Source: Candidatus Babeliales bacterium (GTDB lineage Bacteria; Babelota; Babeliae; Babelales; Vermiphilaceae). Taken from it: a stretch of 64,000 bases of DNA. The stretch is from positions 96,001 through 160,000 of the forward strand of contig CAVUQO010000002.1 of assembly GCA_963743635.1 (NCBI GenBank), read 5' to 3'. Under the pieces are notes generated by a model. The model ran no database searches. It was not told the origin of the DNA and saw only the letters and a program-made list of their open reading frames with translations. A program made the translations under genes and the position numbers. This document shows positions 19,944-36,781 of the stretch, in pieces (within the stretch, counting starts at the first letter, position 1; each line of letters starts with the position of its first letter).

Positions 19944-22392
19944 ATGAAATACGAAGTTGCTCAGATAGAAGGCAAATGGCAGAAGCGTTGGAAAGATAAT
20001 CCGGTTGCAAAGGCACGCAAAGCCGGCAATGGTAAGAAATACTATTGCCTGGACATGTTCCCGTATCCATCAGGTTCGGGCCTGCATGTGGGCCACTGGC
20101 GCGGTTACGTTTTATCCGATCTCTATGCACGTATGAAATGGCTCGAGGGGTACAATGTACTCCATCCAATGGGTTGGGATGCGTTCGGGTTGCCGGCTGA
20201 AAATGCGGCAATCAAATTGGGTATTCACCCACGGGAAAGCACTGAAAAAAATATTGCCGTCTTCAAGCGTCAGCTTGAGCAGTTGGCTGCAATTTATGAC
20301 TGGTACAAAGAGGTTGATACTACCGATCCTGAAGTATTATAAATGGACGCAGTGGATCTTCTTACAAATGTATAAAGCGGGCCTTGCATACGAAGATTTT
20401 ATGCCGATCAATTGGTGCCCATCATGTTTGACTGGTCTTGCAAATGAAGAAGTAGTCAACGGGAAATGTGATCGTTGCGGCTCAGCCGTTGAAGAAAACA
20501 CCATTCGCCAATGGGTGCTCAGAATTACTGATTACGCACAAAAATTACTCGATGGCCTCGATACGCTCGAATGGTCTGAAAAAATTAAATTAATGCAACG
20601 CAATTGGATTGGCCGTAGCGAAGGGCTTGTCTTTACCGCACCGGTGAAAGATACCGATTTAACCATTCAAACATTCTCTGCGCACTTTGAAGCATTCTGC
20701 GCTGATACGTTCGTCGTGATCGCGCCTGATCATGCATTCTTGCCGACCTTACTTGAAGGCGTGCCGAATAAAGATGAGATTCTTGCCTTCTGTAAACAGC
20801 TCGTCGATAAACGCATTGAACGTGGCTTTGAAGAAGAAAAAGAAAGCGAAGGCATTTTCACGGGCCGTTATATCGTAGATCCAATTGGCAATGGCGATTT
20901 ACCAATTTGGATTGCGAGCTTTGCGCTTGCGCATTATGGCACCGGGATTGTAAAATGCTCAGCGCATGATACGCGCGATTTTGCATTCGCTAAAAAATAT
21001 AACATTCCATTAAAAGCAGTATTGCTTCCGGAAGATCCTGCGCTTGCTGAACGCGTTAAAAACTTTGAAGTTTGCTATACCGATATGGAAAAAGGCATTC
21101 TGGCCGAACCGGCGCCCTTTGCGGGAAAACGCGCAGGAGATTGCCGCGAATTAATTATCGAATATTGCGAACAAAAAGGGTATGCGCAGCGTAAAACGAG
21201 TTATCGTTTGCGTGATTGGATATTCTCTCGTCAGCGTTATTGGGGTGAGCCGATTCCATTGATTCATTGTGCGGCATGTGGCGTAGTTCCCGTGCCTGAA
21301 GATCAATTGCCGATAAAATTACCTGATGTTGAGCGCTATCAACCGACGGGCACTGGCGAATCACCGCTTGCTGCTATTCATGATTGGGTTAATACAACGT
21401 GTCCACAATGCGGTGGTGATGCAAGGCGTGAAACGAACACCATGCCGCAATGGGCTGGTTCATGCTGGTATTTCTTGCGTTATCCAAATCCTGATTTGAA
21501 AGATAAGCCATGGGATGCTGAAGATATGAAATACTGGATGCCTGTTGATCTTTATGTCGGCGGTATTGAGCATGCAATTTTACATTTACTCTATGCGCGC
21601 TTCTATGTAAAAGTGCTTTATGATCTTGGCCATCTTCCGTTTAACGAGCCATTCTCTCATTTATTTAACCAAGGCATGGTTTTAAAATATTCAGAAAAAT
21701 CGGGCTTGGTAGAAAAAATGTCTAAATCTCAAGGTAACGTTGTCAATCCTGACGACATTGTCCGCACCTATGGATCAGACGTCTTGCGCGCCTATATCAT
21801 GTTTATGGGGCCTCCTGAGCTTGATTGCGAATGGCAAGATACTGGGCTTGAAGGTATCAAGCGCTTTTTGAATAAAGTGTGGAATTTTGCGACCAATCAA
21901 TCATTAGTGCTGCCAGACACTGAGCAAGAAGATATGGTTGTAACGAAACGAGTGCATAAATTTGTGCACGATTTTCAAGATCGCATGCGTTATTTCAAGC
22001 CAAACACGGCAATTTCTGCGGCGATGGAACTCTTCAATGATATCCAAGCCGATTCAATGCGGCTGAGTAAGGCGTCGCTTGAAAAAGTGCTTATTACACT
22101 TTCTATTTTTGTACCGCATATTGCGAGCGAACTACTGGAACAAATCATTGGTAAACAATTAGCCGATTGTTCATGGCCAACGTATGATGAGGCATTGCTT
22201 GTGCAAGATACGGTAACGTATGTGGTGCAGGTCAATGGTAAGTTGCGCGCAAGTCTTATTGCGAACGTGGTTGCGGAACAAGATATCGTGGAACGTGAAG
22301 CGGCTAAGCTGATTGATAAATGGCTTGAGGGCAAAGAGATTGTGAAGGTCATCTTCGTTCACGGTCGTTTGGTAAATTTCGTCATTAGATAA
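19944..22392 (+). CDS. leuS: Leucine--tRNA ligase; one frameshift near 20333
   Basis: [53 protein letters not shown] is interrupted by an extra base. Confidence 0.95.
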
Positions 22393-23809: not shown

Positions 23810-23984
23810 AATGAAGCCTTATGGTTATTGTGTGATTTGTGTTCTTATGTCGAGCCACCTTTATTGAGGGTAATCATAGTTGATTAAAACTATTTTTTTC
23901 AAGATTTTTGAACGAAGATTCTGATTTTCTTGTGTAGTCGAAGATTCATACGCTATGGTGAATTTCAGACTCAAGGAGAGCACG

Positions 23985-24689
23985 GTGAAAAAAAGAGTGT
24001 GTATTGGCGCATTGATTTTTGCAGCATGGGCATTCAATGGAGATGGGGCATCGATGGCAAAAAATAAATTAGAAGTATATCGCAAACGAAGAAATCTTAA
24101 GGTTTCTCCAGAGCCAGTCGGTACTGTTAAGAAAACTCGTGGAAAAAAAGCGATCTTTGTAATTCAAAAGCATGCGGCCCGAGCATTGCACTATGATGTG
24201 CGGCTTGAAATCGATGGGGTGCTTGTTTCATGGGCAGTGCCAAAGGGCCCGTCAATGAATCCGCGCGTGAAGCATTTAGCAGTTCGTACCGATGATCATC
24301 CGATGGAATATGCGAAATTTGAGGGCGTAATTCCCGAAGGGTCGTATGGTGCTGGCACGGTAATGGTTTGGGATATTGGAACCTATAAAAATATAAAAAC
24401 CACTGATGATGGTGAGTTGGTACCGATGAAAGAATGTCTCAAGCAAGGCCGCGTAGAAGTCTTTCTGAAGGGAAAGAAACTTGAAGGCGGTTACGCATTG
24501 ATAAAGACTGCGCTCAGAGGCGGTGAGCAGTGGCTCCTTATAAAAATGCGTGATGAATATGCTGACGCGCGCAGAAATCCGGTCAGTAGCGAACAAAAAT
24601 CAGCTTTAACTGATCGCACCATGACTGAAATTAAGCAGGATGAGGGAAAACAGACGCGCAAAAGAAAGGTTCCTTCATGTCGATGTTAA
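23985..24689 (+). CDS. LigD 3'-phosphoesterase module, stand-alone; alternative start at 24054
   Basis: FVIQKHAARALHYDVRLE, SWAVPKGP, TDDHP.EY, YGAGTVMVWD.G motifs. Confidence 0.9.
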   Translation: MKKRVCIGALIFAAWAFNGDGASMAKNKLEVYRKRRNLKVSPEPVGTVKKTRGKKAIFVIQKHAARALHYDVRLEIDGVLVSWAVPKGPSMNPRVKHLAVRTDDHPMEYAKFEGVIPEGSYGAGTVMVWDIGTYKNIKTTDDGELVPMKECLKQGRVEVFLKGKKLEGGYALIKTALRGGEQWLLIKMRDEYADARRNPVSSEQKSALTDRTMTEIKQDEGKQTRKRKVPSCRC

Positions 24690-25606
24690 AAGTAGGAAAA
24701 TACAACATAGAGATTACTAACAGTGCTAAAGAAATTTTTCCGCTCTCTCATATCACAAAGGGTGAGATTGTTAATTATTATGTGCGCATCGCAGATACTA
24801 TGGTTCCCCATATGAAAAATCGTTTAATATCGATGCAGCGATTTCCAAACGGTATTAATCATGAGAGCTTTTTTCAGAAAAATATCGGTGATTATTTTCC
24901 AGCATGGATCAAAAATGTTTCCGTTAAAAAACAAACTGAGGGTGTAGTGCACTATGCGGTTTGTAATGATGCAGCAACACTCGTGTACCTTGCCAATCAA
25001 CTCTGTTTAACGCCACATATTTGGCTGAGTAAAGCTGATAAGCTTGATTATCCTGATCGCATGATTTTTGATCTTGATCCTGCGACTGCGCACGATGTAA
25101 CCACAAAAAAGGATTTTGACTCGGTAAGAAAAACTGCCTTTTTGATTAAAGAGGCGCTTGAGCAATTGGACTTGATTCCTTTTGTGATGACGACCGGTTC
25201 AAGAGGCGTACACGTAGTGGTACCCATTAAACGGCAATATACCTTTGATGAAGTGCGTGATTTCGCACGCGATATTGCACAGCTCTTAGTGAATGAATAT
25301 CCCAAGGAATTAACGCTCGAAGTTCGCAAGGAAAAACGAAGAGGCCGCATATTTATGGATGTATTACGCAATGCATTTGGGCAGACCGGTGTTGCTCCTT
25401 ATGCTATTCGTGCGCGAGAAGGAGCACCTATTGCAACTCCCATCACATGGCAAGAATTGAAGAGTCCAACAATGCATGCGCAACGCTACACCATAAAAAC
25501 AATATTCAGGCGCCTTACGCAAAGGGGTGATCCATGGAAAGAAATAGATGCATCAGCGCAATCGATAACGCAAGCGCGTAAAAAACTGAGTAAATTAGCG
25601 CCATAG
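24677..25606 (+). CDS. LigD primase-polymerase module, stand-alone
   Basis: ITKGEIVNYY, RFPNGI..FFQK, PDRMIFDLDP, TTGSRGVH, RNAFGQT..PY motifs. Confidence 0.92.
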   Translation: MSMLKVGKYNIEITNSAKEIFPLSHITKGEIVNYYVRIADTMVPHMKNRLISMQRFPNGINHESFFQKNIGDYFPAWIKNVSVKKQTEGVVHYAVCNDAATLVYLANQLCLTPHIWLSKADKLDYPDRMIFDLDPATAHDVTTKKDFDSVRKTAFLIKEALEQLDLIPFVMTTGSRGVHVVVPIKRQYTFDEVRDFARDIAQLLVNEYPKELTLEVRKEKRRGRIFMDVLRNAFGQTGVAPYAIRAREGAPIATPITWQELKSPTMHAQRYTIKTIFRRLTQRGDPWKEIDASAQSITQARKKLSKLAP

Positions 25607-25678
25607 TGGTTAAAAATGTGTCTAATCTTGACCAGGGCGCTGTGAGGGTGATAGTTTTTTAGCAAAAAAGGATTAAGT

Positions 25679-26719
25679 GTGAATATAGTTTCTATTGTAA
25701 GTCATAGTATGTATCGTCTCAGCCTGTTGCTGCTGACCATTTTTCTTACTGGTTGTATCTGGTATGCGGGTTTCTATAATCGTCCTGCGTGCGATGCAAT
25801 ACCAAATTTAAAAGCAGTAACTCCCGCTTTATATCGGGAATGGGCGAAAAGTTCGAATATAGTTAAAACGGGTATCTATATTACGAATTTTTCCATGGTG
25901 AATATGGCGGAAAATCAATTTTTAATGGATGCATACATATGGTTAAAATTCAATCCTTTGACACTTTCCCTTGATACGGTAAGCCAATTTAGCTTTGATA
26001 AGGGGCGAATGAATGCAAAGGATCTGATAGATGCAAAAAAACTTAATGATGATTTACAAGTGCGATATCGCGTACAGGTTGAGTTTGTGAGTGTACTTAA
26101 TTATAAGTATTATCCTTTTGATAGTCATCGTCTTTATATGGTACTGAGAAGTGATGGCGTTTCTCCCCGAGAAATACTTTTAACGACTGATTATACGAGT
26201 ACTTGGTTTTGCCGTGATGCATTATCTTACAATTGGACATACGATGAACCGGCAACCGATTATGGATTTTTGGAAATGCAGCTCGATTCGCGACAGCCAA
26301 GCAAGGTAGATATGGTGCCAGCATCCGCGATATATTTTGATTTTTCTCGCAAAGATTTTCAAGATGCGATATCTATTTTTCTACCTCTTATGTGCTTAAT
26401 GTTGTTAATGCTGGGTTCGTTTTTGATTGCATTTACTCCTGCGCAAGCAGTGGGTTTTTCTGTGGTGGGCATTCTAAGTGCCATTGTGTATAGAATAATC
26501 ATTAATGGGATGAGTCCCAAAGTGGTATATTATATGCTCAGTGATCTAGGATTTATATTCGTATTTTTATGTGCATGTATGATATGCATTTTTCATAGTA
26601 TAAATGCATGGTATAAAGATGAAGAAAAAGTAAATCTTGAGCTGCTGCGGGGCGGGGAACTTACGATTTCGAGTATCGTATTTCTTGTTGGATGGTTTTT
26701 TATATTATGTGTATGGTAA
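25679..26719 (+). CDS. Pentameric ligand-gated ion channel (Pro-loop, GLIC/ELIC-like) with N-terminal hydrophobic segment
   Basis: VKTGIYITN..V....NQF.MDAYIW beta1-2 pattern, YKYYPFDSHRL Pro-loop, M1 IFLP, M2-M3 loop SPKVVYYMLSD, four C-terminal TM helices. Confidence 0.82.
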   Translation: MNIVSIVSHSMYRLSLLLLTIFLTGCIWYAGFYNRPACDAIPNLKAVTPALYREWAKSSNIVKTGIYITNFSMVNMAENQFLMDAYIWLKFNPLTLSLDTVSQFSFDKGRMNAKDLIDAKKLNDDLQVRYRVQVEFVSVLNYKYYPFDSHRLYMVLRSDGVSPREILLTTDYTSTWFCRDALSYNWTYDEPATDYGFLEMQLDSRQPSKVDMVPASAIYFDFSRKDFQDAISIFLPLMCLMLLMLGSFLIAFTPAQAVGFSVVGILSAIVYRIIINGMSPKVVYYMLSDLGFIFVFLCACMICIFHSINAWYKDEEKVNLELLRGGELTISSIVFLVGWFFILCVW

Positions 26720-26728
26720 GGAAATTGA

Positions 26729-29116
26729 GTGAAAAAATTATCTATAAAAGGTGCACTTTTTTTGATGCTCTGTGCCGCACCGCTCTCTGCAGGGCAAATA
26801 TTTCAAACTCTGGATATTATAAAGGCCTATGCTCAGTGGTGTCCTGCAACGTACGATATTAACAATTTTGATTATTTAAATCCTGATTATGTACCATCCT
26901 ATTCATATTTGATGCCCAATGGCTGGGATAAGCTTTTAATGACAGTCGGATTAAAAAGTAGGCCTTTATGGCAACCAAAACCATTTCTTGAGTTGTTAGA
27001 AAAGGTAACCAAAGAGCGAAATAAGGAAGGTTTGAAGGGACAATGCATTCAGCGCATTGAGGTTTCACAGGGAGATCATTTTCTGATTTGGGCTAGTTTG
27101 CATGGAGCCTTCCATTCATTCGTGCGGACACTTGAGCATTTGAAAGAACAAAGGATTATCGATAATGATTTGAAAATTATTGAGCCAAAGTATTATATGA
27201 TTTTTGATGGAAATACCATTGATCGTTCTCCCTATGGCATGGAAACATTAACCGTTATATTGCGGCTACTCGAGGCCAATCCAACACGCGTATTTTATGC
27301 GCAGGGCAATCATGAGGCTGATGGTTATTGGGAAGAATATGATTTTCATGATGAGCAAACATATAAGCTTGGCGCTTTGCAAGGATTCATGCCTCCCTAT
27401 AAAGATGGGAAAACGCCATACACCGCTGAATTATATAATTTTTTTGATACATTGCCCATGGCCTTATTTTTGGCTGCAAATACCGTTGAGCGTTCTGATG
27501 GAATCCAGATTGGGCATTATGATCGATCCGAATTCCCACTGACATTTGAAGAACAAAAATACATATTAAACGCAGTTGATACGAAAGTATTTCCTTATCC
27601 AATTTCTATACCGAAAGAGCAGAAGGTTCAAAAACCTGCAAAAGTCACCTCAATAATAGAAGGTGATTCGGCTATTGTTCCCGACTACACCTCTGATGGG
27701 TTGCGCTTTTTGCCGGCGGATCAAGGCATTGCTGCATGGTCTGTGCTTTCTTCGCCAACGATTGCCTATCAAAAAATGTATAATTTTTATATGGATTCTT
27801 ACGTAGAAATAACGATTGAGATACCTATTGAGAAAACAACTATTAAGCAACATTATCAAGATGTACGTAAGCTTACTGGTTTCAAGACTGGCCGAGTGTA
27901 TAACATGTTTTCTGGCCAAGCAGATGAACAGTTTCGCGCACAATCAAAGGTCGAACTCGTTAATGTAGGAACGACTACTGATTTGAAAGGCGCATTAGTA
28001 CACTTTGGTACAGAGCTTTACACCGGCTTAGCGCTTGCATTCAATAAACAAAATCAAGATGGCGTCATTCCAGGATGTTTGGCTGAACTCATTGTGTTAA
28101 ATGATGGTCATTCACCAATACGCAGTCGTCGTAATATTGAAGCGCTGATGAAGGACTTTGATACCAAAATCATGATTGGCCTTGACGAGACCATGTTGTT
28201 AAATGCATATCTCGATTTAGTGCTGAAAAAAGATTTCTTGGTGATGTTTCCGGTTAATGGCGTTGAAAAATTTCGCTCCCCTCAATACAGCAACGTGATA
28301 CATTATAACCATTCATATATTAATGAGTCTGAGATATCAACCGCATATATATTGGATAAGGTCGGCGCTAATAAAATTGCAGTGGTCTATGAAAAGCCAG
28401 GGGTGGGAGACGATGCCCTCCTGGGTGTGCGTATTGCATGCAAGGATAGAAAGTTTACCTCGTTAATCGAGTTACCATTCACCACGAGCATTCTTGATTT
28501 TAAAGATCAAATTGCGGCAATACATCGAGAAAATCCTGATGTGATTGCATTATTCTTGTCAGAGGCATCGGTGCATGAATTTATTCGTCAAATAGGGGTG
28601 CAGAATATCGCAGAAAAAATACTATATGGGGCGAGTTCGATTGGTGCGGAATCAGTAAGACAATACTGCCAAGAAAAAGGGTTGCGCCTTATTGTAACCT
28701 ATTTAGTACCAAATCCTTTTAAGAGTGAAATGCCCATTGTGCAGGAGTTTAGAAAGGATGCTTCAAGTAACAACGCTGTAATTTCTGCTCAGGGATTGGA
28801 AGCGTATATCATAGCGAGTATTTTTGTGGAAGGCCTGCGCATTATAAAGGGGCCTATCAATAATGATACGATTATGAAATCGTTTGAATCGATGCATGAT
28901 TATAAGTTCAAGGGTCTGACGTTAAACTTTAATAAGAACACTCGTGAGTTATTAAATACCATCTGGATTGATACTGGCGAAAATAAAGATTGGATTCCAA
29001 ATGAGGTACATGATCGCACGGAAGCCGAAATTGATACAGTGAGAAAGGCATCAGACTCCAAAAAAGAAGAGCCTCAAAAGCATGAGCCTGAAAAGCATAC
29101 AACGTCTTGGTGGTAA
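26729..29116 (+). CDS. Secreted fusion of a degenerate calcineurin-like (PPP-type) phosphoesterase and a type I periplasmic binding (LivJ-like) domain
   Basis: Signal peptide; ASLHG / DGNTIDRS / QGNHE / FFDTLP; then VGTTTDLKG...G...AF...N, LNDGHSP, NPDVI, LEAYI. Confidence 0.78.
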   Translation: MKKLSIKGALFLMLCAAPLSAGQIFQTLDIIKAYAQWCPATYDINNFDYLNPDYVPSYSYLMPNGWDKLLMTVGLKSRPLWQPKPFLELLEKVTKERNKEGLKGQCIQRIEVSQGDHFLIWASLHGAFHSFVRTLEHLKEQRIIDNDLKIIEPKYYMIFDGNTIDRSPYGMETLTVILRLLEANPTRVFYAQGNHEADGYWEEYDFHDEQTYKLGALQGFMPPYKDGKTPYTAELYNFFDTLPMALFLAANTVERSDGIQIGHYDRSEFPLTFEEQKYILNAVDTKVFPYPISIPKEQKVQKPAKVTSIIEGDSAIVPDYTSDGLRFLPADQGIAAWSVLSSPTIAYQKMYNFYMDSYVEITIEIPIEKTTIKQHYQDVRKLTGFKTGRVYNMFSGQADEQFRAQSKVELVNVGTTTDLKGALVHFGTELYTGLALAFNKQNQDGVIPGCLAELIVLNDGHSPIRSRRNIEALMKDFDTKIMIGLDETMLLNAYLDLVLKKDFLVMFPVNGVEKFRSPQYSNVIHYNHSYINESEISTAYILDKVGANKIAVVYEKPGVGDDALLGVRIACKDRKFTSLIELPFTTSILDFKDQIAAIHRENPDVIALFLSEASVHEFIRQIGVQNIAEKILYGASSIGAESVRQYCQEKGLRLIVTYLVPNPFKSEMPIVQEFRKDASSNNAVISAQGLEAYIIASIFVEGLRIIKGPINNDTIMKSFESMHDYKFKGLTLNFNKNTRELLNTIWIDTGENKDWIPNEVHDRTEAEIDTVRKASDSKKEEPQKHEPEKHTTSWW

Positions 29117-32493: not shown

Positions 32494-34605
32494 ATGAATT
32501 TTGGGTATTATGCGTTAGTGGCATTGGCCGCTGCGGGCATTATAAGTTTTTTTTATAAGGATAAAGTTATGGATATGATGCATACACGAGCGGCCGCACA
32601 CTCGCCGATACATGCCGGATTTTTACAGACTCGAGAAGATTTAAAAGTATTATTTCCGCACACAGTTCGTGAGATAGAAGATCGCACTGCCGCAGCGCTT
32701 GCTGATGGAAAATCGCGTGTTACACAGATTCTTGCGATACCGGCAGATCAACGCAGCTATCTCAATACTATGGATACTTTTGATCAATTATGCGCATTCT
32801 CTCCTATTTCTATATTCCATCAAATTGCTGAATTGACCAGCATGGTACACCCGGATGAGCAAATACGTGATGCATCGCGCGAAGCAAGTAAGCGCATCTC
32901 GGCGTTCTTCGTTGATGAAATAGCTAATAATAAGCCATTGTATGAGGCAATCAAGGCTTATGCGGGCAGCACTCAGGAACCATTGTCGGATGAGCAGCGC
33001 TATTTTATCAAAGAAACGCTTGCCGATTTTAAGCGTGGTGGTCTTGAATTGTCCGATGAAAGGCGCGCGGTTGTTGCAGGATTGCAAAAAGAATTAGCTG
33101 ATTTGGGTATTGCATTTGAAATGAATATTGCGGCAGATGATAAAACTGCAATTGTATCAAAAGAAGGGCTTGCGGGTCTTGATGATGACTTTATCGAGAA
33201 GCTCAAAAAAACCGATGATGGCAACTATGTATTAACGACCGACTATCCGACGTATTATCGCGTTATGGAGAATTGCCGTGTTGCAGATACGCGCAAAAAA
33301 CTTTCTCGAACTTTTGAAAATCGGGCTTATCCGATTAATGAAGGGGTTCTAAAAACAATTATTGCAAAGCGTGATCAGCTTGCGCGTGAACTTGGTTTTG
33401 CGAGTTATGCAGATTTGGATTTGGACAGTCAAATGGTAAAAAATCAGCAAACTGCAGAAAATTTTTTAAATGAGTTGTTGAAACGCTCTGCACCAAAAGA
33501 AGCTCGTGAATTTAAAGAATGGACGGCTGAATTGCCAGAATCAGTAACACTGACCGCCGATGGCAAACTCGAATCATGCGACAGGGCTTATGTATGCGCA
33601 CAGTATAAGAAAAAGCACTTTAATCTTGATGAGCGTGAAATTGCAAATTACTTCCCTATGGAAAAGACGGTGCAAAGCTTGTTCCGTATTTATGAAGAGT
33701 TTATGGGGCTTTCATTTGTGATCAAACCGGCTCACGATTTATGGCATAAAGATTTGCAAGTAATTGAAGCATATGATGCTGCAACGCAAAAATTACTAGG
33801 TTATTTACTCATCGATTTGTATCCACGTCCTAATAAATTCACGCATGCTTGTCAGATTACTGTTGTGCCATCAGTGATATTCGCAGATGGGCGTCAACCA
33901 TATAACGTATCACTTGTGATTGCGAATTTCGCGCAGTCAACGCCAACTAAACCGTCATTATTGACTCGCAGTGATGTTACGACGTTCTTCCATGAATTTG
34001 GACACGCGCTCCACTCATTATTGGGCAGAACCAAGATCGCATCATTCTCAGGCACGCATGTAAAGACCGATTTTGTTGAAATGCCATCGCAAATGCTTGA
34101 AGAATGGATGCATGAACCGGACGTTTTAAAACAAGTGAGTTCTCACTATTTGACCGGTGAGCCACTTTCAGATGAGCTTATTGGTAATATTATTGCCTCA
34201 AAACATTTTGATACGGGCTCATTTGTGCAACGCCAAGCCTATCTTGCCTTACTTTCATTGAATTATTACAAAGCAGGTGCCGATAAAAATCTAGATGCCA
34301 TTATGAAAGATCTTTACATCCGTACGCGTCCGCACGTGGCCTATGATGATCAGACGCACATGTATGCAGCATTTGGCCATTTGAACGGTTATGGCGCGAA
34401 GTATTACGGCTATATGTGGTCTAAAGTATTTGCTCTCGATCTTTTTGATACCATTAAAAAACATCATTTTGAGCGAGAGATTGGCAAAAAATATGTAACC
34501 GAAATTTTAAGCAAAGGCGGTAGCAAGGATCCCATGGAATTGCTGGTTGCATTCTTGGGCCGCGAGCCACAACAAGATGCATTCTTTAAGGATCTTGGAT
34601 TGTAA
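32494..34605 (+). CDS. M3 family metallo-oligopeptidase with N-terminal membrane anchor
   Basis: FFHEFGHALH, DFVEMPSQMLE, YYGYMWS. Confidence 0.93.
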   Translation: MNFGYYALVALAAAGIISFFYKDKVMDMMHTRAAAHSPIHAGFLQTREDLKVLFPHTVREIEDRTAAALADGKSRVTQILAIPADQRSYLNTMDTFDQLCAFSPISIFHQIAELTSMVHPDEQIRDASREASKRISAFFVDEIANNKPLYEAIKAYAGSTQEPLSDEQRYFIKETLADFKRGGLELSDERRAVVAGLQKELADLGIAFEMNIAADDKTAIVSKEGLAGLDDDFIEKLKKTDDGNYVLTTDYPTYYRVMENCRVADTRKKLSRTFENRAYPINEGVLKTIIAKRDQLARELGFASYADLDLDSQMVKNQQTAENFLNELLKRSAPKEAREFKEWTAELPESVTLTADGKLESCDRAYVCAQYKKKHFNLDEREIANYFPMEKTVQSLFRIYEEFMGLSFVIKPAHDLWHKDLQVIEAYDAATQKLLGYLLIDLYPRPNKFTHACQITVVPSVIFADGRQPYNVSLVIANFAQSTPTKPSLLTRSDVTTFFHEFGHALHSLLGRTKIASFSGTHVKTDFVEMPSQMLEEWMHEPDVLKQVSSHYLTGEPLSDELIGNIIASKHFDTGSFVQRQAYLALLSLNYYKAGADKNLDAIMKDLYIRTRPHVAYDDQTHMYAAFGHLNGYGAKYYGYMWSKVFALDLFDTIKKHHFEREIGKKYVTEILSKGGSKDPMELLVAFLGREPQQDAFFKDLGL

Positions 34606-34657
34606 TTGTTCATTCAGTAGGAATTGATTTTCACGATAATTAAAAAAAGGAACGAGT

Positions 34658-36781
34658 ATGAATATGAACTTATATGCAAAAACAACGTTGGCGATATTAG
34701 GAATAGCGGGAGTATCTTATATGCAGGGCGAAACGCAGGGGAACTGCATTCAACACGAAGTATCGCAGAGCGCAGTTGCGCACGTGCGATCTGGTCTCTT
34801 AAGAAGTGAGCATGATCTTGTGCTCTTATTCCCGCATACCGTGGCCGATATTCAAGAACGTACCGATGAAGCGCTTGCAGACGCGTATGCTCGTTTGGCC
34901 GCAATTATTGCAGTGCCGAATGATGAACGCACCTATGATAATACGATGCGCGCATTTGACCAATTGTGTGGCTTTTCATCGCTCTCAATTTTTCGTAAAA
35001 TTGCGGAGCTTGTGAGTATGGTCTACTCGGATGCAGCGATTCGTGATACTGCGCGCGAAGCAAGTAAAAAAATGACGGCTTTTTTCGTTGATGAAATTAG
35101 TAATAATGAAGCGTTATATAATGCGATTAAGGCATATGCAGCGACTGCTCAAGAGCCATTATCTGATGAACAGCGCTATTACATCACTGAAACAATCAGC
35201 ACATTTAAACGTGGTGGCCTTGAATTGCCTGCTGATAAACGAGCAATCATTGCCGGTATCAAGAAAGAGCTTGCTGATTTGAATATTGCTTTCAATAAAA
35301 ATATTGCCGCAGACAATAAAACGGTAGTGGTTGCAAAAGAAGGACTTGCAGGCCTTACGGATGATTTCATCGCAGGTCTTAAGCAGACTGAAGATGGGCA
35401 CTATGTTTTGACGACCGATTATCCTACTGCCTTTGGTGTAATGCAGGACTGCGTCGTTGAAAAAACGCGTGAAGAGCTTTGTCGTATTTTTGATAATCGC
35501 GGTTATCCAGCTAATGAAGGCGTGCTTAAGGCTATTATTGCAAAACGTGATGCACTTGCGCATGAGCTTGGCTTTGAAAGTTACGCGCATCTCGATCTTG
35601 ATGATCAGATGGTAAAACATCCGAGCAAAGCAGAGACATTTTTGGATGAATTGGTAAAACGATCTACCATCAAAGAAAATGCAGAATTTAAAGAACTTAC
35701 TGCTGAATTGCCAGAATCAGTTACGCTGACTGCTGATGGAAAACTCAAGCCATGGGACAGCGCATACGTTACTACGCAGTACAAGAAAAAACAGTTCAAT
35801 CTCGACGAACGAATCGTTGCAGAGTATTTCTCGATGGAACACACGGTACAGCGTTTATTGAATATTTATGAACAATTCATGGGGCTTTCATTTAAGGTCA
35901 AATCAGCAGAGAATCTGTGGCATGAAGACGTAAAACTCATTGAAGCATACGATGCATCAACGCATAAACTGCTCGGCTATTTGCTCTTGGATTTACATCC
36001 GCGGCCAAATAAATATACCCATGCATGCCATGGCAATATTGTACCATCCGTGAGATTTTCAAATGGTTCTGAACCTTTTATGGTTTCGATAGTTATTGCT
36101 AATTTTCCGAAATCAACTGTAACGAAACCGTCATTATTAAAGCGCGAAGATGTACGTGTATTCTTTCATGAGTTTGGCCATGCATTGCACGGCTTATTGG
36201 GCAGAACACCAACCGCATCATATTCAGGTACACGCGTAAAAACTGATTTCGTTGAAATGCCTTCTATAATGCTTGAGGAATGGTTATGGGAAAGGGATGT
36301 GTTGAAACAAGTGAGTGCCCATTATGTAACGGGCGAGCCTCTTTCAGATGCATTGATTGAAAGTATTCTCGCATCAAAACATTGTAACACCGGTTCATTT
36401 GTGCAGCGTCAGGCATCCCTTGCGCTCATTTCATTAAATTATTACAAAGCGGGTGCTCATAAGGATGTTGACGCAATTATGCGTGATCTTTCTCTGCGTA
36501 CACGCCCGAACGTGGCTTACGATGATGAAACGCATAAGTACGCATCGTTTGGCCATTTGACCGGCTATGGCGCGAAATATTATAGCTATATGTGGGCTAA
36601 GGTATTTGCGCTCGATCTTTTTGATACCATTAAAAAGCATGGCTTGAGCCCTGAAATCGGCAAGAAATATGTTGATGAAGTGCTCAGCAAAGGCGGCAGC
36701 AAGGATCCAATGGATTTATTGGTTGCTTTCTTGGGGCGTGAGCCACAACAAGATGCATTCTTTAAGGATCTTGGATTGTAA
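34658..36781 (+). CDS. M3 family metallo-oligopeptidase paralog with signal peptide
   Basis: FFHEFGHALH, DFVEMPS; C-terminus identical to the upstream paralog. Confidence 0.93.
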   Translation: MNMNLYAKTTLAILGIAGVSYMQGETQGNCIQHEVSQSAVAHVRSGLLRSEHDLVLLFPHTVADIQERTDEALADAYARLAAIIAVPNDERTYDNTMRAFDQLCGFSSLSIFRKIAELVSMVYSDAAIRDTAREASKKMTAFFVDEISNNEALYNAIKAYAATAQEPLSDEQRYYITETISTFKRGGLELPADKRAIIAGIKKELADLNIAFNKNIAADNKTVVVAKEGLAGLTDDFIAGLKQTEDGHYVLTTDYPTAFGVMQDCVVEKTREELCRIFDNRGYPANEGVLKAIIAKRDALAHELGFESYAHLDLDDQMVKHPSKAETFLDELVKRSTIKENAEFKELTAELPESVTLTADGKLKPWDSAYVTTQYKKKQFNLDERIVAEYFSMEHTVQRLLNIYEQFMGLSFKVKSAENLWHEDVKLIEAYDASTHKLLGYLLLDLHPRPNKYTHACHGNIVPSVRFSNGSEPFMVSIVIANFPKSTVTKPSLLKREDVRVFFHEFGHALHGLLGRTPTASYSGTRVKTDFVEMPSIMLEEWLWERDVLKQVSAHYVTGEPLSDALIESILASKHCNTGSFVQRQASLALISLNYYKAGAHKDVDAIMRDLSLRTRPNVAYDDETHKYASFGHLTGYGAKYYSYMWAKVFALDLFDTIKKHGLSPEIGKKYVDEVLSKGGSKDPMDLLVAFLGREPQQDAFFKDLGL

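Follow-up and report, generated by a model that had tools for sequence, protein, structure and literature searches.

A pentameric ligand-gated channel homologue and a secreted pseudo-phosphatase/binding-domain protein as a candidate chemosensory unit in a Babeliales bacterium

The gene pair described here lies in a 64,000-nucleotide (nt) stretch of DNA from Candidatus Babeliales bacterium (assembly GCA_963743635.1, contig CAVUQO010000002.1, positions 96,001 to 160,000), referred to below as the window. The genome is that of a small-genome soil bacterium, with 1.45 Mb in 3 contigs and a completeness of 85%. Two adjacent open reading frames (ORFs) were analysed, both on the forward (+) strand, to which all window coordinates refer. 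ORF1 (25679–26719) encodes a divergent homologue of the ion channels of the pentameric ligand-gated type (pLGICs), to which channels of nerve cells also belong, and ORF2 (26729–29116) encodes a secreted protein in which a PPP-like phosphatase domain is followed by a type I periplasmic binding protein (PBP) domain. We consider it moderately probable that the two products act as one periplasmic chemosensory unit, a binding-protein-coupled channel with the PPP-like domain as adaptor. This reading is built on the identities of the modules, the loss of phosphatase motifs, the export signals, the genetic linkage, the natural fusions and the lack of an ATP-binding cassette (ABC) partner.

GLIC, a proton-gated channel, is among the solved prokaryotic pLGICs, and ELIC and sTeLIC are further examples. 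To our knowledge the natural ligands and roles of the prokaryotic pLGICs are largely unknown, and GLIC and ELIC have served mainly as structural models. The ORF1 product has 346 amino acids (aa) and begins at a GTG start preceded by the ribosome-binding site AAGGA. A phmmer search of the PDB with ORF1 alone gave GLIC chains with an E-value of 4.8e-07 over about residues 111–314; GLIC was the best match, with very low identity. The profile of the family, made from 85 members, matched GLIC over positions 140–340 with an E-value of 1.4e-18. The Pfam model Neur_chan_LBD scored 14.2 bits on ORF1, below its 26-bit cut-off; the family has diverged too far for this curated model to capture it, and membership rests on the PDB profile match. 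No relative was returned when assembled genome contigs were searched with the single ORF1 protein.

ORF1 shares with GLIC a Pro-loop, a beta-rich outer domain and four transmembrane (TM) helices. The periplasmic, extracellular-type domain covers aa ~36–228 (25784–26362) by alignment to the extracellular domain of GLIC and contains the Pro-loop YPFD at aa 145–148 (26111–26122). P146 of this loop and W186 of the outer domain are invariant among the 85 family sequences, and further outer-domain residues are conserved. The transmembrane domain (aa 233–346, 26375–26716) was aligned to GLIC M1–M4, and its hydropathy peaks are read as four TM helices. P236 and P280 are invariant in the family and both are retained in ORF1, P280 aligning with the M2–M3 proline of GLIC. 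ORF1 differs from the solved prokaryotic pLGICs in having an extra N-terminal hydrophobic segment, seen by hydropathy at aa 14–32 (25718–25774), which may be a signal or an anchor. The segment ends in L-T-G-C, which we take to resemble a lipobox, and the Cys is not conserved among relatives. ORF1 belongs to the pLGIC superfamily and is a predicted channel, as the original prediction, made from the DNA sequence before this analysis, had proposed; the GLIC match joins the YPFD loop and the four C-terminal helices in pointing to this identity. An additional N-terminal extension was seen in the channels of family f7 (L017:887–2572, L083:5998–7677, L083:13343–15016 and L085:5389–7077), where about 210 residues carry six or seven hydrophobic helices and have no Pfam match.

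The ORF2 product (795 aa) was assigned using Pfam and an AlphaFold2 model with a predicted local distance difference test (pLDDT) score of 87.5 and a predicted template modelling (pTM) score of 0.86. Its N-terminus is a cleavable-type signal peptide at aa 1–21 (26729–26791), composed of KK, a hydrophobic core and LSA/GQ, with a predicted cleavage site; in the model a helix at aa 2–15 is followed by low pLDDT at 17–21. The PPP-fold domain occupies aa 22–400 (26792–27928) according to profile, model and Foldseek. Pfam Metallophos matched aa 124–258 with an E-value of 2e-06 and 28.8 bits (cut-off 21.5), and the PPP-like profile matched BSU1, PP5 and PP2A in the PDB at 6.5e-10 to 1e-08. When the domain was modelled separately with 87 relatives the pLDDT was 93.2, and Foldseek placed this model closest to PP5 (5.2e-11), followed by PP1, PP2A and calcineurin, with TM-scores of 0.47–0.63. 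A look-up of the same part in the ESM Atlas gave generic Metallophos clusters only.

The second domain of ORF2 is of the type I periplasmic binding, Venus-flytrap or LivJ-like class and spans aa ~405–765 (27941–29023). Pfam Peripla_BP_6 matched aa 411–727 with an E-value of 3.1e-24 and 86.7 bits (cut-off 31.7). By sequence the domain matched PDB entry 4kv7 (E 1.4e-19), and Foldseek returned the same entry (E 2.4e-23, TMt 0.82) with a two-lobe fold. Other Foldseek relatives were LivJ/LivK and urea-, aromatic-acid- and amide-binding chains. A ligand class taken from these fold neighbours was rejected, the neighbours binding Leu/Ile/Val, urea, amides, aromatic acids and γ-aminobutyric acid. The protein ends in a charged tail (aa 766–795, 29024–29113) with pLDDT below 50 at 783–786 and 789–795. 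Metallophos, Peripla_BP_6 and Foldseek agree on the identity proposed earlier for ORF2, a PPP-type pseudo-phosphatase joined to a LivJ-type domain.

The catalytic motifs of the PPP-like domain are degenerate at two of three positions, exactly as first quoted. Motif I reads ASLHG in place of the canonical GDxHG (aa 122–126, 27092–27106) and motif II reads GNTIDRS in place of GDxxDRG (aa 161–167, 27209–27229), while motif III is retained as GNHE (aa 193–196, 27305–27316). Loss of the motifs extends to the whole channel-adjacent group, in which none of 88 PPP-like domains keeps GDxHG, GDxxDRG and GNH[ED] together; taken singly the three are intact in 13, 1 and 24 domains. The substituted positions differ from domain to domain: at position 4 of motif I, 34 domains have Q, 25 have H and 7 have F, and at position 2 of motif III, 29 have N, 15 have K and 9 have S. 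The near-invariant residues of the domain are mostly of structural type, namely Gly, Trp, Leu and Ser.

An internal control was provided by two other PPP genes of the same genome (L095:824–2365 and L096:922–2229), encoding proteins of 513 and 435 aa with signal peptides. Both keep all motifs, reading GDTHG or GDIHG, GDCVDRG, GNHE, CCHGG and R[AG]HQ, and the motif loss is therefore specific to the channel-linked branch. Judged by its motifs, the channel-linked PPP domain is a dead phosphatase, a pseudo-phosphatase and not an enzyme. The former active-site residues vary freely among the 88 orthologous domains, which argues against a shared phospho-ligand site and leaves unsupported the phospho-metabolite half of the dual-ligand receptor that had been suggested at the outset. 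Many further secreted PPP paralogues, of 450–630 aa, were seen across the relatives and may form an expanded family of exported phosphatases.

The two genes are separated by the 9-nt spacer GGAAATTGA (26720–26728), which lies between the TAA stop of ORF1 (26717–26719) and the GTG start of ORF2 (26729); no terminator-like site was found between them. Promoter-like hexamers TTGACC and GATAGT, spaced by 16 nt, are present upstream of ORF1 (25628–25655). This call is weak because the number of promoter-like sites in the region, 15, is not in excess of that in shuffles (13.2 ± 4.1). Metagenome contigs from two studies, of peat and of soil, span the junction between ORF1 and ORF2 and show no difference there (X1, 25611–27817; X2, 26474–26856), and the arrangement is therefore no assembly artefact of this genome. 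The single variant in these contigs is a non-synonymous T>G at 25800 in runs X1 and X3. It changes ORF1 codon 41 from ATA to AGA (I41R), between the hydrophobic segment and the outer domain.

The distribution of the pairing was surveyed across the phylum. The channel was found in 19 of 41 related genomes with ORF1 as query, and in 161 of 261 genomes of the phylum with the family profile. These come from 95 of the 145 genera and include 112 of the 189 high-quality genomes; all 261 are listed under one order. Neighbourhoods were analysed at 81 loci with 92 channel genes, made up of the window and 80 fetched loci. The first 20 loci cover every genome matched by the ORF1 query, and the other 60 were hand-picked from the best 150 of 282 profile matches at about one per genus, so that the sample is non-random. 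A partner was defined as a PBP gene, a PPP-like gene or both, lying on the same strand no more than 400 nt away and annotated by three hidden Markov models (HMMs) made from our own alignments.

By this definition 81 of the 92 channel genes have a partner, and the pairing of channel and partner is not chance. The layout of the window, with a PPP-PBP fusion gene directly downstream of the channel gene, was found for 45 channel genes, one of which also has an upstream PBP gene. A three-gene layout of PBP, channel and PPP-like genes accounts for 24 channel genes. The remainder comprise five with an upstream PBP gene only, five with a downstream PPP-like gene only, two single-chain fusions of channel and PBP, and 11 channel genes with no adjacent partner. 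A PBP domain is consequently adjacent or fused to 76 of the 92 channels (45+24+5+2), and a PPP-like domain stands next to 74. Several of the five PPP-only cases are at contig ends or beside gene fragments, and in one a further PPP-PBP gene follows. The binding domain is the more constant partner, as intact loci have the channel and PBP without PPP and never the reverse. Among 60 fused partner genes the number of binding domains is one in 50, two in seven, three in two and four in one. Gene order is retained in 13 of the 17 families that have channel-bearing genomes.

A second intact pair is present in the same genome about 30 kb upstream of the window (G000:C2:88547–91938, locus L028), encoding a 350-aa channel and a 780-aa PPP-PBP protein. 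The proposal that the two genes work together, which had called for a survey of gene neighbourhoods, fits both the same-strand adjacency and the natural fusions that this survey uncovered.

The fusions were found in genome G015, where two tandem genes of 767 and 815 aa carry a Peripla_BP_6 domain joined behind the fourth TM helix (TM4) by a linker of 30–50 residues. In pLGICs the C-terminus faces outward from the membrane, and the fused binding domain therefore lands in the periplasm. The G015 fusions have no PPP-like part, and ORF2 as query gave no PPP-like match anywhere in that genome. A public protein collection holds 14 full-length fusions including G015's own, with coverage of 94–100% and identity of 40–100%; the 13 beyond G015 have the same coverage range of 94–100% and identities of 40–88%, and five contigs apparently carry two such genes each. 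Divergence on this scale among 14 fusions indicates an evolving lineage and not an assembly error. A profile search for longer fused forms returned just two of the known channel-PBP fusions and no three-part fusion, which is weak evidence. In genome G233 (L045:5985–6003) the channel gene and the partner gene share a reading frame and only TGA and one codon stand between them; an open frame of 1118 aa was reported, and read-through would give a three-part fusion.

ORF2 has its cleavable-type signal peptide, and the PPP-like proteins of the three-gene layout have a basic stretch and one N-terminal TM helix, many with long tails rich in Pro, Gln, Ala and Lys. In the stand-alone PBPs a signal peptide, which in some has a Cys behind its hydrophobic core, precedes a linker of 50–170 residues. 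Together with the G015 fusions, these signal peptides, anchors and linkers read as several predicted ways of holding binding domains near the membrane and the channel.

A quick maximum-likelihood tree was calculated from the 92 channel domains. The three-gene type is gathered in a single clade of 30 rows, supported by a Shimodaira–Hasegawa-like approximate likelihood ratio test (SH-aLRT) value of 84 with inner nodes of 91 and 98, and this clade contains 24 complete three-gene units, five with the upstream PBP only and one with the downstream PPP only. Channels of the two-gene type are nearly all in the other half of the tree. Two genomes of one family carry both layout types side by side. Mapping of the layout labels onto the tree required 18 changes compared with a mean of 42.1 for shuffled labels, and 0 of 200 shuffles was as low, a test that is inflated by shared ancestry. 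The tree shows that layout follows the channel phylogeny, the units having duplicated and diverged as units, and no more than this.

The genome contains two Peripla_BP_6 domains, both in channel partners. Its only BPD_transp_2 permease is encoded elsewhere, in an ABC operon that supplies an ABC_sub_bind protein and an ATPase, and no LivHM-type permease for the binding domain was found in the 85%-complete genome. Three HMMs and clustering of neighbours revealed no permease next to the unit in the 81 loci. With no ABC partner found in this incomplete genome, the binding domain is probably not that of an importer.

In the proposed unit ORF1 would be located in the inner membrane with its ligand-binding-type domain facing the periplasm, and ORF2 would be exported with both of its domains facing the same compartment. 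The Venus-flytrap domain would capture a solute about as small as an amino acid, an amide or an organic acid. The loaded clamp would either act on the outer domain of the channel, as binding proteins do on chemoreceptors, or hand the solute over, and the presence of the solute would be converted to ion flux. The PPP domain, its catalysis lost, would be a structural adaptor or auxiliary subunit that holds one to four binding domains at the channel. Physical contact, the docking domain, the ligand, the direction of gating and the ion are the elements of this scheme that we infer. A more specific version is put forward tentatively, in which a three-part receptor-channel is formed, the dead PPP domain docks arrays of Venus-flytrap domains and closure of the clamp, not free ligand, gates the pore.

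Several findings weigh against a coupled sensor. Eight of the 81 loci have no partner at all, two of these on contigs shorter than 5 kb, and the other three of the 11 partnerless channels are extra copies in loci that do hold a partner. Four of the channels in these eight loci group in a separate clade, so the channel is able to exist by itself. Weaker matches than the sampled best 150 may show less adjacency, and related genomes are non-independent observations. The linker between PPP and PBP is at most 15 residues in 38 of 60 fused genes and 40–142 aa in 13, so a rigid allosteric link by way of the PPP domain is not a general feature. The M2 residues are ambiguous, with no acidic residue at -1'/-2', R or K at 0' in 34 of 85 channels and Thr at 9' in 62 of 85 where ORF1 has Leu, and ion selectivity is not readable from them. 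ORF1 itself is the most deviant of 85 channels, with 14 of 43 conserved columns changed compared with a median of 3 (conserved columns being those at least 80% conserved, n = 43). Its branch is the longest in the tree (2.59, median 0.53), and in amino-acid composition it stands apart from the other channels of the alignment. The ORF1 copy may consequently be under relaxed constraint or changed in function.

This divergence raises the question of whether the window pair is a decaying paralogue that is drifting while the L028 pair is the working unit. The L028 channel groups with ordinary family members, unlike the window copy, and the long branch, the altered columns and a sole metagenome variant that is non-synonymous (I41R) would fit decay. 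Both frames are nevertheless full length and intact, with ribosome-binding sites, and the sequence is nearly identical in two studies. Most substitutions in ORF1 are conservative ones, with F replaced by V, L, Y or I and V by I, and P146, W186, P236 and P280 are all retained. ORF2 has a high-confidence model and deviates only moderately, at 11 of 71 columns (rank 11 of 44). Decay is considered improbable, and ORF1 is probably a fast-evolving, functional paralogue.

A different arrangement would be a ligand relay, in which the PBP concentrates the solute and releases it to the orthosteric site of the channel with no stable complex formed and the PPP domain undocked. A relay was proposed for the fused or operonic PBP and Cache partners of bacterial pLGICs, according to the accessible text of PMC549065. 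It would also account for the invariant W186 and the other conserved outer-domain residues kept by the channel, and for the partnerless channels in eight loci. Against it, the conserved dead PPP domain beside 74 of 92 channels would be left without a role, and covalent fusion and membrane anchoring suggest that proximity outweighs bulk concentration. Periplasmic binding proteins also usually bind tightly and release their ligand only on docking, a habit that does not suit a relay, which we consider unlikely. Less likely still is that the genes are co-regulated with separate functions, the channel in ion or osmotic homeostasis and the PPP-PBP protein as an independent factor, periplasmic or secreted, such as one that scavenges or acts on the host. 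The MscS genes that stand beside the unit in five loci and the many other secreted PPP paralogues in these genomes would suit such a division. It is opposed by single-chain channel-PBP fusions that persist over 40–100% identity, by the gene order kept in 13 of 17 families with a layout that follows channel phylogeny, and by a binding domain that is found nowhere in the genome outside the channel partners.

Cooperation between a bacterial pLGIC and a binding-type partner in small-solute sensing was predicted in 2005 by Tasneem, Iyer, Jakobsson and Aravind (PMC549065), whose accessible text describes bacterial pLGICs with N-terminal PBP-I fusions and with operonic PBP-II or Cache partners. As here, the pLGIC of those systems is joined by fusion or operon to a periplasmic binding-type sensor. 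The accessible text places PBP-I at the N-terminus of the channel, whereas in the present family it belongs to a separate secreted protein, arrayed in 1–4 copies, or follows TM4 in a C-terminal fusion. The units here also regularly include a third part, a dead PPP-phosphatase domain, in contrast to the systems of that text, where the word 'phosphatase' occurs 0 times. A literature search, with subscription journals outside it, gave nothing about a PPP-like partner, about PBP domains fused C-terminally or about the family in Dependentiae/Babeliales, and a term search of the accessible text of Jaiteh et al. 2016 (PMC4795631) gave no mention of periplasmic, PBP, operon or N-terminal domains. The original prediction had known of no description of the pairing; this holds for the PPP component and the layout, which were not found in print, but not for cooperation of pLGIC and PBP, already predicted in the accessible text of PMC549065. 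The PPP component of the bacterial pLGIC-PBP pairing is new, and the general idea of the pairing is 20 years old.

Other known receptors share parts of this design. Accessory periplasmic N-terminal domains can modulate gating, as reported for DeCLIC in the accessible text of PMC12664993; the DeCLIC domain has a non-PBP fold and is in the same chain, whereas the accessory module here is a separate protein of different fold. In eukaryotic ionotropic glutamate receptors and class C G-protein-coupled receptors the LIVBP-like amino-terminal or Venus-flytrap domain is a LivJ-type clamshell placed on a membrane signalling module, as is proposed here (accessible text of PMC549065 and PMC12664993). Those receptors have a tetrameric K-channel-like pore or seven TM helices, in contrast to the pentameric Cys-loop-type pore of the present family, and the clamshell here would mostly be non-covalently associated, unlike theirs. 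Free periplasmic binding proteins serve as ligand-recognition subunits of membrane transducers in MBP-Tar and LuxP-LuxQ, where the output is methyl-accepting or kinase signalling; here it would be ion flux through a pLGIC. A precedent for the PPP-like domain is Vps29 of retromer, whose calcineurin-like fold no longer has its catalytic metal ligands and survives as a protein-binding module. The domain described here differs in being of the PPP subfamily, periplasmic and fused to or beside binding proteins, and its scaffold role would be a comparable one.

If the reading is correct, a LivJ-type clamshell has been joined to an ion channel a second, independent time in evolution, and a periplasmic pseudo-phosphatase joins the enzyme folds that are reused as scaffolds. 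The three-part receptor, if true, would put the glutamate-receptor design, in a bacterial and non-covalent form, on a nicotinic-receptor pore, and would give a prokaryotic pLGIC its first physiological ligand route. With a soluble and separable binding protein as the putative ligand-recognition part, the pLGIC ligand question becomes tractable, since this part can be screened alone and then brought to the channel. In this phylum of host-dependent bacteria the family is widespread (161 of 261 genomes) and many genomes have several copies, and it therefore likely matters for how these cells read their surroundings.

Two gene families encoding proteins that end in Y-x-F occur near the unit at other loci, and neither is present at the window locus. 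One is a DcaP-like outer-membrane porin family of 410–530 aa, whose profile matched 6eus with an E-value of 1.6e-07 (A6). In seven loci the gene immediately precedes the channel gene on the same strand, and loci where it is nearby bring the total to 14 of 81; loci with the gene include L026, L030, L050, L052, L053, L057 and L092. Members of the other family (700–830 aa) follow the PPP gene in 16 three-gene loci, L067–L081 and L031, forming a four-gene unit (A7). This family gave a sub-threshold Alginate_exp match only and no PDB match. The porin-like neighbours would fit an entry route for an external solute. Genes for MscS-type mechanosensitive channels were seen beside the unit in five loci of the family to which the window belongs (L014, L016, L021, L034 and L035).

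At the window locus itself the neighbouring genes encode a LigD phosphoesterase, a LigD polymerase and a transaldolase. The LigD 3'-phosphoesterase and primase-polymerase are two overlapping genes directly upstream of ORF1 (23955–25606), with no ligase domain adjoining them. Further upstream the leucyl-tRNA synthetase gene (19944–22392) is split, a 132-aa ORF at 19944–20342 overlapping a 745-aa ORF that begins at 20155. The apparent frameshift lies near 20330–20342 and would reflect an assembly error or else a genuine interruption of this essential gene. Downstream of the pair, two tandem paralogues of about 705 aa with hydrophobic N-terminal starts occupy 32494–36781; judged by eye, both have an HExxH motif and resemble M3 oligopeptidases overall.

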